The position numbers and the translations under genes are program-made. A DNA stretch of 64,000 bases from positions 37,386,001-37,450,000 of the forward strand of contig OZ336885.1 of NCBI GenBank assembly GCA_965287045.1, given 5' to 3'. Within the stretch, counting starts at the first letter, position 1, and each line of letters starts with the position of its first letter. This DNA is from Carcharhinus amblyrhynchos (taxonomy: Eukaryota). Shown here one piece after another: positions 3,681 to 53,389 of the stretch. The notes beneath the pieces were generated by a model. That model was not told where the DNA came from and made no database searches. It saw only the letters and a list, made by a program, of their open reading frames with translations.

Positions 3681-5013
3681 ATGATGTTTATTTTCTTGCT
3701 TTTATCCCCATTCTTCTTTTTATGCCAGTAATCAAATCTGGTTCAGCATGTAGGTTGAGTGGATAGCAAGATATACAGATTAGGGGCATCCAAGTCTCAT
3801 AATCTGGACTCTGCTGAAATGGGTGATCTCAATGCAGCAATACACATGACACAATTGGCCTCAGTATCTTTGGTTGAGGAGAAAGTGGAGAGGGAAAAAT
3901 GAAGTGGCAATGAAAAACTTAAATTATTCTAGTTGGCATTCCTGCTTCACCTTACACCTGATCTGATACTGTCCTTTCTCTATTCCAATATGTATATATA
4001 TTATCCTGCTGTTTAAATAAAAATCACCTTCCAAGCCAACTTCATAGCACAAGATACATTTGGTTGAAAATCTTCATCTCATTTGCTTTCATGTTTCCAG
4101 AATATTAACTCCAATGTTCTTTCATCAATGTTTCTCATCATTTTCTAAATGAGTCAGTGTTCTGGTCTCATCTTTTTTCTTGGCAGCTCATTGCAGCTAT
4201 TGATTACTATCTAGGGAACGAAATACTTTCTGATATCTATCCTTCATTTATATATTACCAACCTGTCTTGTCTTGTCCTGCTTTTCTAGTGTTTTGGTTT
4301 ATTTTCACTATTTGTTTTGATGTCTCTTTTTCAAGACTAAAGCCCTATCTAATGAAATGTTCCTTCATAGCTTTTCCCTCCTCTCTTATTCTGTCTTAGG
4401 CAATCTCTTAGCATTGAAGATAATTACTTCCATTCCAGTTTGATAGTTCCAAGATAGGTGATAAGTCCAATGCGTGATCTCAGACTCCCACACACACAGT
4501 AAGTGGTGCTTGAAGGATTGGGTAGATGAGTTGTTTGCAGGTTTGTATACTCCCTTTGCTGTCTCCATCTCTGCTCTCCAAGTTCTCAATGAAGTATCTC
4601 AATGTATTTGGTGCTTTCCCAAAAGAGCCATCCCCCATTTTAGCTGGTCACAAACCACGGTCTCCCATAAGTCGGTGGGTATGTTTCACCTCAGGAATGC
4701 TTTGAGGACAGCCTGAAGGCAGGGACTCCCTTCCTGGGAGTCTCCTGCCAGAGCCAGGTTCTGAGTAGAACAATTGCTTTGGGAATCTACTGTTAGGCTA
4801 CCAAATGACATATCCTGCCTAGTGGAGCTGGTTTTTCCATGATGAGCTTGGCAGAGGACATTGCTGTTGGACTGCCTTTCTTCCCATCCAGAGCATTTTG
4901 CTTCATCCATGCAGGCATATATCTCTCTGTCGTCAAGAGACTAAATACTCTAGGTGATCACAGGTGGCCTGAGGGACAGAGGAGTGCTTGTCTTCAGACA
5001 ATGGGGGCTTGGG

Positions 5014-7704: not shown

Positions 7705-9780
7705 TTACATACAAACATATAAGGGAGGAGCAGGGGTACATCATGCAGCCCCTCCATTATTCCACCATGTAATAGGATCATGGCTGATCTCGTTTACCTC
7801 AACTCCGCATCCCGCATATTTCCAATAACCCATCGCCCCATTGTTACCAAGAAACTATCTGCATCTGCCTTAAAAATATTCAAAGACTCTGCTTTCACTG
7901 ACTTTTCAGGGACAGAGTTCCAAAGGCTCACAAACCCCTGAGAGAATTTCTTTTGTTTCATCTCTGTTTTAACTGGGCAACCACATTTTCAATAAGTGAC
8001 TCCCAATTCTAGATTGTTCCACAAGAGGAAACATTCTCTCCACATTCACCCTGTGAAGACCCTTCAGGATTTTTTCATGTTTCAGTCAAGTCACCTCTTA
8101 TTATTCTAAACTTCAGTGGATATGAGACTAGCCTATCAAACCTTTCCTCATAAGACAATCTGCCCATCCCAGCTATCTGTTTGGTAAACCTTCTCCGAAC
8201 TGTTTATAATGCATTCACATCCTTCCATAAATAAGATGATCAATTCTGTACATGGTACTCTAGATGCAATTTCACATGTGATCTGTATTACTGGAACATT
8301 GAGTCATACAAGAAGAAAAGGCCCTTTAGCCCATCGGGTCTGCACTAACAATAACTATCACTAAAGGCGCACTAATCCCATTTTCCTGTACTTGTCCCAT
8401 ATCCTTGAATGTTATGATATTTTAAGTGCTCATCCAAATTTTTTTTTATAGGTTGTAAGGTTTCCAGCCTCCACTGTCTTCCTTGCCTCTACTACCTTTC
8501 CAGGCAGTGCGTTCCAGATTCCCATCACTCTCTGTGTCAAAAAGCTTTTTATTAAATCCCCTCTGAATCTCTTGCCCCTTACCCTAAAACTATGCCACCT
8601 CATGATTGACCCCTCTACCAAGTGGAACAGCTGCTCCTTGCTTACCCTGTCCTTGCTTACCCCTCATAGTCTTATTCATTTCAATCATATTCTTGAAAGA
8701 AAACAATCAAAGCCTTTCCGATCTCACCTTATAGCTCAAATGCTCCTTCGCAGGCAACATCCTGGTGAACCTACTCTGTACCCCCTGCTATTGCTATCAC
8801 ATCCTTAACCTCCCTATTTTTGTATCCGTTTTCCCTTGCAATAAATGATAACATTCTATTAGCTTTCCTAATTACTTGCTGTACCTACCTACTAGCCTAC
8901 TGTGATTCAAGCATTAAGACATCCAGATCCCTTTGCATCTTAGAGGTCTGCAATCTCTCACCTATTAGAAAATAAGCTTTGTTTTTTTTGTGGAAATGGA
9001 CAATTTCACATTTTCCCATAACATATTTAATTTGCCAGATCTTTGCCCAGTCGCTTAACCTATCTCTTTGTATCCTCCTTATGTCCTCTCTACAACTTAC
9101 TTTCCTACCTATCTTTGTGTTGTCAGCAAATTTGGCAACGAACCCATCCATTCATTCATCCAAGTGGCTTATATAAATAATAAAATGTTGATGTCCCAGC
9201 ACTGATTCCTGTGGCAAGCCACTCATTACATTTTGTTGACCTGAAAAATACCCATTATGCCTACTCTCTGCTTCCTGTTAGCCATACAATCATCTATCCA
9301 TATCAACATGTTATTTACTATGCCATGAGTTTTTAAAAATTGAAACCAATGCATCAACTAACTAGACACTTCTTTTAAGTTCTTGGGATGAAGTCCATCA
9401 GGATCTGGGCTCTTGTCAGCTGGCAGCTCCAACAATATACAGTGCCACTTCTCTGGTGACTGTAATTTTCCTGCATTCCTCCCTCCTTTCCATTTCATGG
9501 TTTATGGCTTTTTCTGGGTTGTTCCTTGTGCCCTCTATAGTGAAGACTGAGGCAAAGTACCTTTCAATTCATCTGCCATCTCCTTGTTTTCCATTATCGA
9601 CTCTCCAGAGCCAATTTCTATAGTACTGTGAAAACTCACTTTGTTACCTTTTTTCTTTTTTATAAGTATTTCTAGAAACTCTTACTATCTGTTTTAAATT
9701 TCTGGCTAGCTTTCCCTCGTAGTTCTTTTTTTTTCTAGTTATTAATCTTTCCATCATCCTTTGCTGTTCCTGATATTCTT
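7705..9780 (-). mobile_element. Old CR1 LINE fragment with a second CR1 3' end nested at ~8300-8800
   Basis: Minus ORFs 8897-9151 (KFADNTKIG...GKCEIVHF) and 8430-8621 (RVRGKRFRGD...TQRVMGIWNALP). Two separate 3' tails at ~7705 and ~8300. Confidence 0.9.
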
Positions 9781-46329: not shown

Positions 46330-46680
46330 TTTGAGAAGTTGTGGGGGTGTTGGATGGGCAGCAATGGGGGGTCACGGGGCTGGCCAGTGATCGGGTTGGC
46401 CAGCGATTGGGAGGCCGGCAATGCGGGGTCACTGCGCTTGCACCGATCTCTGCACTGACAGATCAGCGCCTGCGCAGTGACCTGCTCAGCGCTATGCTGC
46501 TGGCCTCTCCAGCGGGCATAGACCACGTCCCTGATTTTCAGAGTGAATCTCGCTAGGGCACTCTGCAGTGCTTGGAGTGTTGGAGATTCATTCTGAAAAT
46601 CACGCTGAAAAAACCAACAAGTGTTACTCCGGGTTTCATGTGAATTCGGCACTCTGAATTCTTTTGGGAGAATTGACCCC
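46330..46680 (-). mobile_element. Harbinger-type MITE fragment
   Basis: TIR-like end cttttgggagaattgacccc; interior homologous to the 20509 and 39788 elements. Confidence 0.6.
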
Positions 46681-47049
46681 CATAAATTCATCTGATTTAA
46701 ACTTATCTGAAGGCCAGTTTCATGCCTATTGCTAAAAACCAGAACTAAAGAGGTTTTGAAACATTTGCTCTAAAATACATATCCAGCTGCGGTCAAGTGA
46801 GTGGTAAGGAGCTAGGAAAAATTAAAATAAAGTTTATTTATTAGTCACAAGTAAGGCTTTACATTAACACTGCAATGGAGTTACTGTGAAATTCTCCTAG
46901 TCGCTACACTCTGGCTCCTGTTTGGGCCAATGCACCCAACCAATAGTGTGGGAGGAAACACACGCAGACACAGAACAAATGTGTGAACTCCACATAGTAA
47001 AAAGTCTGACAACACCAGGTTTTAGTCCAACCGATTTATTTGATAATAG

Positions 47050-47089
47050 ACTCACAAGCTTTCGGGGTTAGTCCCTTCGTCAGGTGAAT
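47050..47089 (-). ncRNA. Minimal hammerhead ribozyme (mirror copy in left arm)
   Basis: Exact reverse complement of 47220-47259. Confidence 0.8.
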
Positions 47090-47219
47090 GGAGAGTTCTG
47101 GCCTCAGACAGAGCATATAAAGCACAGACAGTTTAGAGATTACTCTCTAGAGACTAATTTAGAGAGTAATCTCTAAACTGTCTGTGCTTTATATGCTCTG
47201 TCTGAGGCCAGAACTCTCC

Positions 47220-47259
47220 ATTCACCTGACGAAGGGACTAACCCCGAAAGCTTGTGAGT
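47220..47259 (+). ncRNA. Minimal type I hammerhead ribozyme (PLE-type)
   Basis: ATTCAC-CTGACGA-A-GGGACTAACCCC-GAAA-GCT-T-GTGAGT: stem I, CUGANGA core, stem II, GAAA, palindromic AGCU stem III. Predicted cleavage after 47253. Confidence 0.8.
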
Positions 47260-48969
47260 CTATTATCAAATAAATCGGTTGGACTAAAACCTGGTGTTGT
47301 CAGACTTTTTACTGTGTTTACGCCAGTCCAACGCCGGCATACCCACATCATGAACTCCACATAGACAGTGATCCAAAGCGGGAATTGAACCCAACTCCCT
47401 CGCGCTGTGAGGCAGCAATGCTAACCACTGTGCCATTGCAGTATCTCCCACCATTTATCTCTTTCCTATCCACAGCAACCTAAATCGTCAACTACAGCCT
47501 TGATGGAAAATTCCTGAGGTATCTCAGCCATTTACAAAATCACCAGTGAAGCTGAATTTCACTGAGAATTCAGATCTCTCACAATCAATTTCTAATTTGA
47601 TTCAAAATGATCCACCGGGGGTTGTTTCAATGAGATTTTAAGAACAATCTACAAAAAGGCAGAATTTCACTGATTTCTCCTTGGGAAAGAAATGTGTAAA
47701 GAACTCAGAAGTACCCTCCCCATTTGTGGTTTATTGAGAAATTTCTATAGCATGTCTTATCTCTGCTTGTGGTATGCAAAATTATATGTTCCTGAATGCC
47801 ACTTATTTCATCATGGGGTTTGATTCTAAAACTGAAATGAATTGGGAAAAGGAGGAAATAGGATGTTTATTATATGAAACCAAAGTCTTGTTGGAGAGAA
47901 AAACAGTAATTCTCAGGGCAGATATTCCTGGAAGAGAAATGGCAATGGCTGTTTTATCCAGTGTTTATTGTTTGGTTTATTCCTTCACAATCTCCTTAAG
48001 TGAAAATGTTGGAGTGTTATCATTTACAACAAAGTGGCAACCAGGTGACAGGGCAATGTCTCCCAGTGTGTTGTGGAAGAGTTAAAGTATTCACATGAGA
48101 ATGTTGACTGAGGGTGGTCACCATCTGTGTGAATTATTTGAGGTCTAATATCATCCCCATGATTTCCCCCTAAAGGGAGAGGAAGTCGGGCAGCCTCAAG
48201 TGCAATCATAAGGGATGACTTCCATTTCAGAGGAAAAGTAAATAGGCCGTTGATAGTGCTTTGGAATTAGCTTTCTGTTGGATAGTTTTTTTTTTGGTTT
48301 ACTCTCTTAACCAAACAAAGCCCATGGCTGACGTGAGAAGTGTCAGTGTGCTGCTACTGCTCTTCCAGTTTCAAATAAAACCAGCATTGGCCATCCAGGA
48401 GATGCATGTGGGTTACAAGATTCAAGGTAAATTTGATCTCTCGTGTATTTACAATGTATCAAACCAAACCAGGAAATGGATTGGTTAATAAGAAGTAATT
48501 ATCCTTAGCGCGGGCGTGAGGAGGGCCGCTATATAGAAGTGCTGAATTTCAAATTCTGGCTGCCTTTGGTTACTGTGCAGCATCATTAGCTGGAAACTGT
48601 TTATAAATAGATTTTGTTGTTTGAAATCTTTTATGTTGAATTTGCAGCCCTGATTAATCTCTGGTTGCGAATCCATATCAAGCATTATAATTAGATGCTC
48701 CAGTTCCCTTTGAGCAACTAAAAATTAAACAGCACATGTTGCTTGGTACTTGTGGTGACATAAAAAAACGAGGAACATGACATCATTGCAACCAACCAAT
48801 GTTATCTCAGATGCAACATGCAATATTGAGCACATCTGTAACAGGGGGTCACAAAGTTCCCAAATGTCCTCAAGTAAATAGGTGCTCAGTAGCAATAACA
48901 ATTACCGTTTCCAATAGTTGCACAGTAAGAAGTCTCACAACACCAGGTTAAAGGTTTATTTGTAGCAAA

Positions 48970-49006
48970 CACTAGCTTTCAGAACTGGCTGTTCCTTCAT
49001 CAGGTG
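48970..49006 (-). ncRNA. Minimal hammerhead ribozyme in Penelope pLTR
   Basis: Minus strand CAC-CTGATGA-A-GGAAC-AGCCA-GTTCT-GAAA-GCT-A-GTG. Confidence 0.75.
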
Positions 49007-49352
49007 GGGGGGGAGTTCTGATCACAAACAGGGCATATAAAGACACAAACTCAATTTACATGTATAATAATTGGAATGTGAGTCTTTACAGCTAATCAAG
49101 TCTTAAAGGTACAGACAATGTGAGTGGAGAGAGGGTTAAGCACAGGTTAAAAAGATGTGCATTGTTTCCAGACAGGAAAGTTAGTGAGATTTTGCAAGTC
49201 CAGGCAAGTTGTGGGGGTTACAGATTGTGTGACATGAACCCAAGATCCCGGTTGAGGTCATCCTCATGTGTGCGGAACTTGGCTATCAGTCTCTGCTCAG
49301 TGACTGTGCTGTTGTGTGTTATGAAGTCCACCTTGGAGAACGTTTACCTGAA

Positions 49353-49779
49353 GATCATATACCTTATATTAAGTTGATCTTTCTCAACACCCTAGCTATG
49401 ACTGTAATATTACATTCTGCACCCTCTATCTCCTCAATGAATGGTATGCTTGGTCCGTATAGCGCGTAAGAAACAATAAATCAAATCAAAATCACTGGAG
49501 AGCAAAAAAGCTGATCATAACTTTATCTTTCCTAACCCAGGGATGTGGAAGCTAATTGTTACATCCACAAGACGCACCCTGGATGAGATCAGTTCATTCA
49601 GGACAGATCAAGATGAAATCTTTGACTGTCATGATCTGCAGTTATTTGGATCAGAAATTCACTAAAACACTGGAGGAGAGCATCAGACCATTTTGACTGT
49701 AAAAGTCCCTCTCAGACAGAACAGCTTTCTTGGAAAATGTGGTGGTCATACTTGGAGACGCTGTAAATAACCCGAGGCT
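49353..49779. repeat. Inverted duplicate of 50659-51097 inserted inside the Penelope element
   Basis: Aligns end to end with the reverse complement of 50659-51097; about 25 substitutions and two small indels by manual count. Confidence 0.95.
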
Positions 49780-50954
49780 AAATGCCTGTGACCACTGAAG
49801 TGTTCCCCAACAGAAGGAGAACAGTCTTGCCTGGTGATTGTTGAGTGGTGTTCATTCATCTGTTGTCATAGCATCTGCATGGTCTCCCCAATGTACAATG
49901 CCTTCGGACATTCTTTCCTGCAGCTTATCAGGTAGACAACATTGGCCGAGTTGCAAGAGTACGTACCATGTACCTGGTGGATGGTGTTCTCACGTGAGAT
50001 GATGCATCTGTGTCGATGATCCAGCACGTCTTGCAGAGGTTGCTGTGGCAGGGTTGTGTGGTATTGTGGTCACTGTTCTCCTGAAGGCTGGGTTGTTTGC
50101 TGCGAACAATGGTCTGTTTGAGGTTGTGCGGTTGTTTGAAGGCAAGAAGTGAGGGTGTGCGGATGGCCTTGGCGAGATGTTCGTCTTCATCAATGACATG
50201 TTGATGGCTCGGAGAAGAGGACGTAGCCTCTCCGCTCTGGGGAAGTACTGGACAACAAAAGATGTTTAACCTGGCGTTGTGAGACTTCTTACTGTGTTTA
50301 TCCCAGTCTAATGCCGGCACGTCCACATCATGACTCCAATTGTTGCAGTCAGCAACTCCCAAATCACAAACAGCCTGACAAAAGAAACGGGCAACATTTT
50401 TCAAGGCTGGAATGCTAATTCCTACCAGGATATGACCGCAGTATGTTTGAACAAAACATCTTTGTTCATAATAACTGAGATTTAATTTTGCACTGATCAT
50501 TTCGTTCTTGTGAAGTCAGTAATATTTGCAGTCTGTGAGGAAATCTTGAAATAAAAGCAAGGTCAAGCCAATGCAATTCATTACAAGTTTTAATGCAAGT
50601 ATTTAAAGAATTACATTAATTAAGAAATGAAGAAGATAAGCAACTGTGGCACAATAACAGCCTTGGGTTATTTACAGTGTCTCCAAGTATGACCATCACA
50701 TTTTCCGAGATAGCTGTTCTGTCTGAGAGGGACTTTTACAGTCAAAATGGTCCGATGCTCTCCTCCAAGAGAACTTTGTTTCAGTGAGTTTCTGATCCAA
50801 ATAACTGCAGATCATGACAGTCCAAGATTTCATCTTGATCTGTCCTGAATGAACTGATCTCATCCAGGGCATGTCTTGTGGATGTAACGACTAGCTTCCA
50901 CATTCCTGGGTTAGGAAAGATAAAGTTATGATCAGCTTTTTTGCTCTCCAGTGA

Positions 50955-52880: not shown

Positions 52881-52916
52881 CCACTGGGAGGCAGTGGCTG
52901 CTGGTGGTACTACAAC

Positions 52917-53057
52917 CACAGTAAAAAGTCTGACAACACCAGGTTTTAGTCCAACCGTTTTATTTGATTGTCAAATAAATCGGTTGGACTAAAACCTGGT
53001 GTTGTCAGACTTTTTACTGTGTTTACGCCAGTCCAACGCCGGCATGCTCACATCATG
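52917..53057. mobile_element. Miniature palindromic PLE insertion
   Basis: 51-bp arms 52917-52967 / 52971-53021 (one mismatch), 3-nt loop, near-identical tail to the 47 kb element, and 14-bp TSD GGTACTACAACCAC (52906-52919, 53058-53071). Confidence 0.93.
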
Positions 53058-53389
53058 GGTACTACAACCACCTGAGGCCACTGATCACCATGGGCTCAGA
53101 TGCAGTGTTAGTTTGAGAGGGGAGGGGTGAGGGGAGTGGGGAGTGGGGATGGGGATGGGGACAGTGGGGGGAAGTCACAGATGAGAGTTGCAGGGAGGGG
53201 TGTTGACACCAAGTGCAAAGATTTGTTCTTAGCGGACCCCCTGCTCAAAATGTCGGGTTCCTCGGTCAGTGAAGAAACAAAAGACAAGTTTAGAGGATGT
53301 GTGAATGGCAGAATGAAGCACAACTTCTGCCTAAAAAGAGAATCAAGAGAAAAAGAAGCGTAAAACCAAAACCTGAAGACAAACAGGGA

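Follow-up and report, generated by a model that had tools for sequence, protein, structure and literature searches.

Within the DNA analysed here, a window of 64,000 nucleotides from Carcharhinus amblyrhynchos, there is a perfect palindrome with a hammerhead motif on each strand, and this raises the question of whether such a structure spreads as a palindromic unit of its own or is left behind by the insertion of some larger element, and in what way its mirror half was made. The preliminary description of this DNA claimed exact 154-bp arms, a 10-nt loop, a 37-nt tail and a 14-bp TSD, a minimal hammerhead motif on each strand, an origin from inverted repeats (pLTRs) of a Penelope-like element (PLE) and a read-through RNA folded into a long stem. 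All these points were confirmed: the measurements were reproduced on recomputation, the hammerhead core pattern was found once per arm, other copies have the sense arm leading into an ORF with RT and GIY-YIG domains, and the computed fold of the read-through RNA of the insert is a single long stem with an MFE of -313 kcal/mol.

Positions 46996-47149 and 47160-47313 are exact reverse complements around the loop GAGACTAATT. The element-derived part of each arm comes to only 149 bp (47165-47313 and its mirror): the initial 2 bp of the left arm are the final 2 bp of the TSD, and upstream of 47165 the family copies read on differently from the focal copy. The focal insert consists of the last 186 nt of the element (47165-47350), a tail-less mirror copy and a 20-nt non-element apex, which looks by eye like a scramble of neighbouring arm sequence (Table 1). 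The outer end of the inverted arm sits at the position usual for the sampled family copies, and all three CpGs of each arm are intact.

Table 1. Features of the focal insertion and its host repeat (window positions)
Feature	Position	Strand	Basis or remark
Host repeat, high-copy, with tRNA-type A/B-box-like motifs, split by the insertion	46830..47441	-	Read by eye, and copy number
Left TSD	46984..46997	+	TGAACTCCACATAG, 14 bp; final 2 nt (AG) also fit the element end
Inverted arm: antisense copy of the PLE 3' repeat (pLTR) without tail	46998..47144	-	Exact reverse complement of the right arm
Minimal type I hammerhead motif, minus-strand copy	47051..47088	-	Mirror of 47221-47258
Apex, 20 nt, non-element	47145..47164	.	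5-bp palindromic extension around the 10-nt loop
Sense arm: 5'-truncated 3' end (pLTR) of a Neptune-type PLE	47165..47313	+	Comparison with family copies
Minimal type I hammerhead motif	47221..47258	+	Stem I UUCAC/GUGAG; core 47226-47232 and 47246-47249; palindromic AGCU
One-sided tail, 37 nt	47314..47350	+	In tandem copies continues into the first ATG of the ORF
Right TSD	47351..47364	+	TGAACTCCACATAG; initial 3 nt (TGA) also fit the element continuation

The focal palindrome is a 5'-truncated insertion of a young, abundant Neptune-type PLE. In longer copies the sense arm runs into an ORF with RT (PF00078, E 7e-10) and GIY-YIG (PF01541, E 3.4e-5) domains, and the full unit, measured in copy L132, is 3,025 bp long and carries both. 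The C-terminal position of GIY-YIG in the ORF is that of EN+ PLEs, and the other characters of their insertions were found as well, namely a pLTR in tandem units, a one-sided tail of 30-40 bp, a TSD and an adjacent inverted truncated copy; in tandem copies the tail reads on into the ATG of the next unit. The linker of the ORF in L133 has the form CX4CxxC, with a Cys pair within the GIY-YIG core. According to the available text of PMC8557442, a CX2-5CxxC linker before GIY-YIG marks Neptune and Nematis and is absent in Penelope/Poseidon. By this mark, which is shared with Nematis, the parent would be assigned to the Neptune type, and an alternative label, Poseidon, was dropped owing to the same CX4CxxC linker. 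The close protein relatives come from sharks, and shark and turtle relatives have the same domains.

Exact matches in the 2.9-Gb genome number 7,744 for a 29-nt stretch of the tail, 16,084 for a 34-nt motif that ends next to it and 32,797 for a 26-nt arm-end motif. The focal 186 nt differ at one position from copies L032 and L077 and at two from the ORF-bearing copy L079. The focal copy is one among thousands of short broken-off copies of an ordinary PLE and was most likely dead on arrival.

Other traces of such elements occur in the same window. A second, smaller palindromic insertion of the same family at 52906-53071 has arms of about 50 bp, a tail and a 14-bp TSD (52906-52919 / 53058-53071), and the hammerhead is absent from it. 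Older copies of related PLE subfamilies were found at 48921-49360 on the minus strand (endonuclease end and a hammerhead with diverged stem II) and at 50000-50330 (a short sense end with tail beside an antisense ORF fragment). Just upstream of the focal insertion a GC-rich stretch contains two short inverted repeats, 46427-46482 (23 nt, 83%) and 46532-46602 (20 nt, 95%), which probably belong to another repeat.

As far as tested, the palindrome is not an assembly artefact, because its TSD is intact, the same architecture recurs in most sampled copies (77 of 96) and the tail-TSD-SINE junction (47330-47425) is reproduced without a difference in a contig of run X1. A contig of run X4 shows the same junction with one difference, and 9 of the 492 bases of its flank (1.8%) depart from the assembly. 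Among the contigs listed, none runs across the apex or the whole palindrome, and none from runs X5 and X6 contains the junction. Since X4 also holds the junction, the focal insertion is older than the split of the assembly and X4 haplotypes. The young age claimed in the preliminary description holds, but 'very recent' has to be toned down, as the junction is shared with a haplotype whose flank has diverged to the extent given above.

The repeat split by the insertion, a putative HE1, is present in very many copies. Its A- and B-box-like motifs, recognised by eye at 47435-47425 and 47391-47381 on the minus strand, would form a promoter that aims into the insert, but transcription by polymerase III would likely end at four consecutive T some 60 nt inside it, ahead of the second arm. 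No exon of a host gene was recognised among the 39 ORFs of at least 110 aa in the window, which gave just three RT fragments and three chance matches below the cutoff.

To characterise insertions of this family, two samples were drawn, both from the first 31 Mb of one contig, which contains segmental duplications. The first included the first 100 of the 7,744 tail matches (contig 1, 0.3-30.8 Mb), of which 96 were classified; three segmental duplicates were left out, and one tandem insertion was counted without its second unit. The second was composed of 52 new loci from matches to the 34-nt motif; 43 were kept, and the nine left out were one mis-fetched locus, two duplicates, one tail-less copy and five complex or tandem cases. 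An adjacent inverted arm was found in 77 of 96 and 36 of 43 copies, respectively. A TSD of at least 10 bp accompanies 74 of the 77 inverted-arm copies of the first sample, and the TSDs of the family measure 11-16 bp with a mode of 12-13. Among the remaining 19 copies of that sample, four have a separated or rearranged inverted arm. Apexes lie at any depth, from about 17 to more than 2,500 nt, and both arms end in the depth zone of the focal copy in just 4 of the 77 unbiased copies. Tight palindromes make up 48 of 83 sampled insertions, and a whole hammerhead is present in both arms of 25 of the 83, these fractions being derived from the samples alone. Palindromes are routine by-products of insertion in this family.

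Several particular features of the copies may be mentioned here. The 5' ends are most frequent at 100-119 nt ahead of the tail pattern, where two 10-nt bins take up 27 of 139. This peak lies immediately upstream of the hammerhead and about 25-30 nt downstream of a TATA-like motif (47188-47194 in the window), and is possibly the RNA start of a pLTR promoter. Arms ending, as the focal ones do, about 155-176 nt before the tail pattern have the longest scrambled apex inserts, of 17-52 nt (L032, L077, L103, L117, L124). Seven solo arms end at the second of the two fixed points considered below, with neither tail nor adjacent partner (L200, L205, L213, L222, L224, L228, L240), and may be insertions primed solely at that site or broken pairs. 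Five copies (L051, L066, L120, L123, L157) reach the start of the ORF by running 5-15 nt beyond the usual 3' end, which makes the first start site less than strict.

The focal apex has a single match in the genome at up to two mismatches. Taken together with the frequency of inverted arms in both samples, the free choice of apex depth and the common haplotype of the two arms, this indicates that the mirror half is likely made anew at each insertion. In LINE-1 twin priming, the second target end primes on the same RNA and leaves an inverted 5' piece joined through microhomology. In our opinion, a related process probably gave rise to the focal copy: a truncated PLE insertion, with a mirror arm formed when both cut ends of the target primed reverse transcription on one RNA from start sites about 37 nt apart. 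That PLEs as a group insert by programmed two-site twin priming, in which a dimer cuts both strands, priming occurs at the tail end and the tail start and the products are joined head to head, is a broader proposition, which we favour only slightly over its negation.

According to this model, the endonuclease, probably a dimer, would nick both strands 12-15 bp apart, and one target 3' end would prime at the end of the tail and the other at its start, with 1-4 nt of pairing each. The first enzyme would usually displace the second cDNA and recopy the same RNA, so that both cDNAs would often stop at one RNA end; if it halted at the second site, a plain inversion with a tail-only arm would result. 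The cDNA ends would be joined head to head via microhomology or after short locally templated additions, and the apex may be closed when one of these ends folds back, a possibility to which the 5-bp palindromic extension of the focal apex points. For the focal copy the best fit is such a hybrid, with twin priming first and closure by fold-back. The steps are read back from genomic footprints, with no intermediate seen; what the genome displays directly is the parent element together with its TSD, an apex found only once, a fixed outer end of inverted arms and a common arm haplotype. End joining with templated inserts is a trait of polymerase theta.

Two fixed points 35-40 nt apart are the main footprint. 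At its outer end the inverted arm stops 12 to 0 nt ahead of the tail pattern in 66 of 69 copies; for the 3' end of the element, 71 of 74 copies give +28 to +36. In the part of PMC11167929 available, an in vitro study of Poseidon, two RT start sites bracket the tail, both strands are cut and extended, and a dimer is predicted; the match between these start sites and the fixed points favours two-site priming, with the reservation that the element studied there is Poseidon, not Neptune, and that no strand difference in the use of its start sites was observed. Microhomology is raised equally at both outer junctions of our copies (1.81 and 1.72 nt against null values of 0.74 and 0.73; n=53, exact TSDs), and at the left junction it would be expected from end joining as well. 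The two arms of an insertion were copied from one template, since in the variable stem II block they agree within two edits in 35 of 36 copies, a likeness that amounts to 18.6% when different copies are compared.

The rival that survives best is self-priming, close to the idea put forward in PMC3846280: the 3' end of the single first-strand cDNA would fold back and be extended along its own strand as far as protein bound near the tail, before joining the second target end. In our estimation it is rather unlikely, although a number of observations suit it. Equal arms, within 5 nt, were counted in 25 of 77 copies against 3.6 expected by permutation, which snap-back explains directly and twin priming accounts for only if both cDNAs stop at one RNA end. 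The focal apex has a 5-bp palindromic extension foreign to the element, as is natural for fold-back, and apexes occur at short natural palindromes and scrambled inserts (overlap in 38, blunt in 7 and insert in 32 of 77). Shared arm haplotypes are also accommodated, as is the single tail, counted by hand as exactly one in 36 of 36 simple head-to-head insertions among the first 100 matches of a tail-independent pattern, the tally leaving out duplicates, five complex or tandem cases, one further match and about a dozen solo tail-less arms.

Against self-priming, the inverted arm is frequently the longer one, and fold-back of the first cDNA cannot exceed its template. With a tolerance of 5 nt, 113 insertions divide into 55 with a longer inverted arm, 23 with a shorter one and 35 with equal arms (p=0.0004); the inverted arm is more than 20 nt longer in 30 and shorter by as much in 15, with the largest excesses being 1,069 and about 2,500 nt (L113 and L053). 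The bias is weak in the second sample taken alone (17 vs 9), and later deletions in the sense arm could also yield longer inverted arms. In the tandem insertion L132, enclosed by one TSD, the inverted arm differs from the distal 3' unit at 6 of 690 positions and from the adjacent unit at 23 of 693; snap-back would need a 2.9-kb loop here, and this is the one exception among the 36 copies to the sharing of stem II between neighbouring arms. Long inverted arms with a tail-only partner (L035, L066, L084, L230) represent the non-duplicating inversion expected from twin priming when the first enzyme halts at the second site. Self-priming also gives no reason for a stop at the second RT start site. 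The fixed outer ends, L132, the length bias and the tail-only partners favour two-site twin priming on one RNA.

The identity of the arms has also been ascribed to ongoing arm-to-arm repair or conversion. We regard this homogenisation, put forward in the preliminary description, as very improbable. The sample conditioned on the tail appeared to support it, with tight palindromes four times more uniform than spaced arms (12 mismatches at 4,079 sites against 102 at 7,751), and the presence of the junction in the run with a 1.8% different flank would agree with it. The signal failed replication with an unconditioned tail, where 54 mismatches at 4,123 sites (1.31%) in tight palindromes stand against 66 at 4,246 (1.55%) in spaced arms (p=0.36) and CpG decay in tight palindromes affects one arm at 10 sites and both arms at none. 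Moreover, arm mismatch follows the age of the tail (2.4% vs 0.66%), and the focal element sequence has no private base among the 30 copies compared. On average the two arms mismatch at 1.05% of sites in the first sample, and no mismatch at all is seen in 12 of the 27 whose arms measure 80-220 bp, so zero divergence is common; youth and chance suffice for the focal copy.

Spread as a unit, in the form of the non-autonomous palindromic (MITE-like) ribozyme family proposed earlier, is the weakest explanation and can be set aside almost entirely: although nearly all of the 366 bp can be matched at 86-96% in at least 40 places, L013 and L019 have a common apex and L005-L008 are identical, the look-alike list is ranked by likeness to the query, apex strings are distinct in 23 of 23 closest look-alike places, L005-L008 have common flanks and a common TSD and are therefore segmental copies, and few unbiased copies have both arms ending in the focal zone. 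The 23 places remained after four opposite-strand duplicates and three segmental copies were dropped. Each look-alike comes with a TSD of its own, and both its arms carry a stem II variant of its own; between L013 and L019 there is just one base of difference, located outside the join, and the join is common to both. No second copy with the focal apex and a different TSD exists in the 2.9-Gb genome, and no dispersed copies were found that combine the same apex and length with different TSDs. The appearance of a fixed apex comes from ranking bias of the top look-alikes and was ruled out by the apex depths of the census. With no fixed loop or arm length among the copies, these palindromes are one-off by-products. 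Nor is the insertion a non-LTR retrozyme: as described in the accessible text of 10.64898/2026.07.22.740005, those are likewise short, non-coding, hammerhead-bearing and PLE-derived, and they propagate as head-to-tail tandem monomers, whereas the focal copy is a single head-to-head insertion, a one-off stub.

The hammerhead core CTGACGA...CGAAA has exactly two matches in the 64-kb window. The type I fold includes a stem I of 5 bp, a stem II of 3 bp and an AGCU palindrome replacing stem III (-7.5 kcal/mol), and the cut is predicted after U47253. With its core boxes, stems I and II and palindromic stem III position, the insert carries a putative minimal type I ribozyme. The search with hammerhead models advised in the preliminary description gave no Rfam hammerhead at E<=10, yielding only miRNA-type hairpin matches below the gathering score, and the ribozyme call accordingly depends on the motif and on family covariation. 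In 84 motif-complete family copies, a stem II of at least 3 bp is kept in all 84, with 19 different sequences, and at least 4 of the 5 pairs of stem I in 78. The hypervariability of stem II, all 19 sequences of which are paired, compared with 97-99% identity in the remaining pLTR, looks as if block mutation or structural selection had been acting.

Cleavage by the hammerhead has no role in setting the insertion end, as 3 of 139 sense arms start within 3 nt of the cut site, and the cut was ruled out as the source of 5' ends. The two motifs appear to be passengers of the pLTR; they lie on opposite strands, so a single transcript carries one, and they would not form a cis dimer. In the modelled read-through RNA, the hammerhead is buried inside the 154-bp stem. 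A Dicer/ADAR substrate, as suggested in the preliminary description, would be such a hairpin if transcribed and accompanied by small RNAs or editing. The portions available of PMC4209133 report no cleavage by a single minimal motif and note motif pairs on opposite strands, 100-700 bp apart. The metazoan PLE hammerheads described there share with ours the core boxes, the extra nucleotide after A9, G10.1-C11.1, the palindromic 15.2-16.2 and a very variable stem II; the putative ribozyme of the focal copy differs in a stem II of 3 bp and in H17 = U. In the Anolis carolinensis Poseidon system, as far as the main text of PMC11167929 goes, the hammerhead cleaves only with protein and is dispensable for insertion.

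The structure of the locus is already known in kind. The accessible parts of PMC3846280 and PMC8557442 describe in EN+ PLEs the head-to-head inverted pLTR, the junction palindrome, the 30-40 bp one-sided tail, the short TSD, tandem units and, in the parent, a Neptune-type linker and CCHH-type GIY-YIG; against them there is no difference in kind, and the present family stands out as very numerous with mostly small insertions, so its junction rules can be counted. As far as its available text shows, PMC3846280 reported inverted pLTRs with junction palindromes, an optional tail and a TSD and proposed self-priming, and PMC8557442 called the mechanism of inverted and tandem PLE ends unresolved. Poseidon of PMC11167929 shares the two RT start sites bracketing the tail with our family; it belongs to another clade and its ORF starts inside the hammerhead, rather than at the tail end, and the main text does not link the second start site to inverted arms. 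LINE-1 twin priming, mentioned in the part seen of 10.1101/2024.12.14.628481, has in common with the present model priming by the second end on the same RNA, an inverted 5' piece and microhomology. The second site is variable in LINE-1 and the inversion is without duplication, while in the focal PLE the site is fixed and the region is usually copied twice. No twin-priming model for PLEs was found in the literature searched; one may be in print in the subscription journals, most of which (with older PLE papers) lay beyond the search, or in supplements, which did likewise.

The locus itself is ordinary, and its value is that of a data point in a large young family with countable junctions. The footprints give a concrete model of PLE insertion that can be tested in the existing in vitro system. 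If two-site twin priming is true, the constant size of the TSD, the presence of a tail on one side only and the inverted pLTR would all follow from a single rule, and such PLE families would turn out short perfect palindromes by the thousand. Long double-stranded RNA would arise from the several thousand palindromes of this family, provided that many of them are located in transcribed regions.
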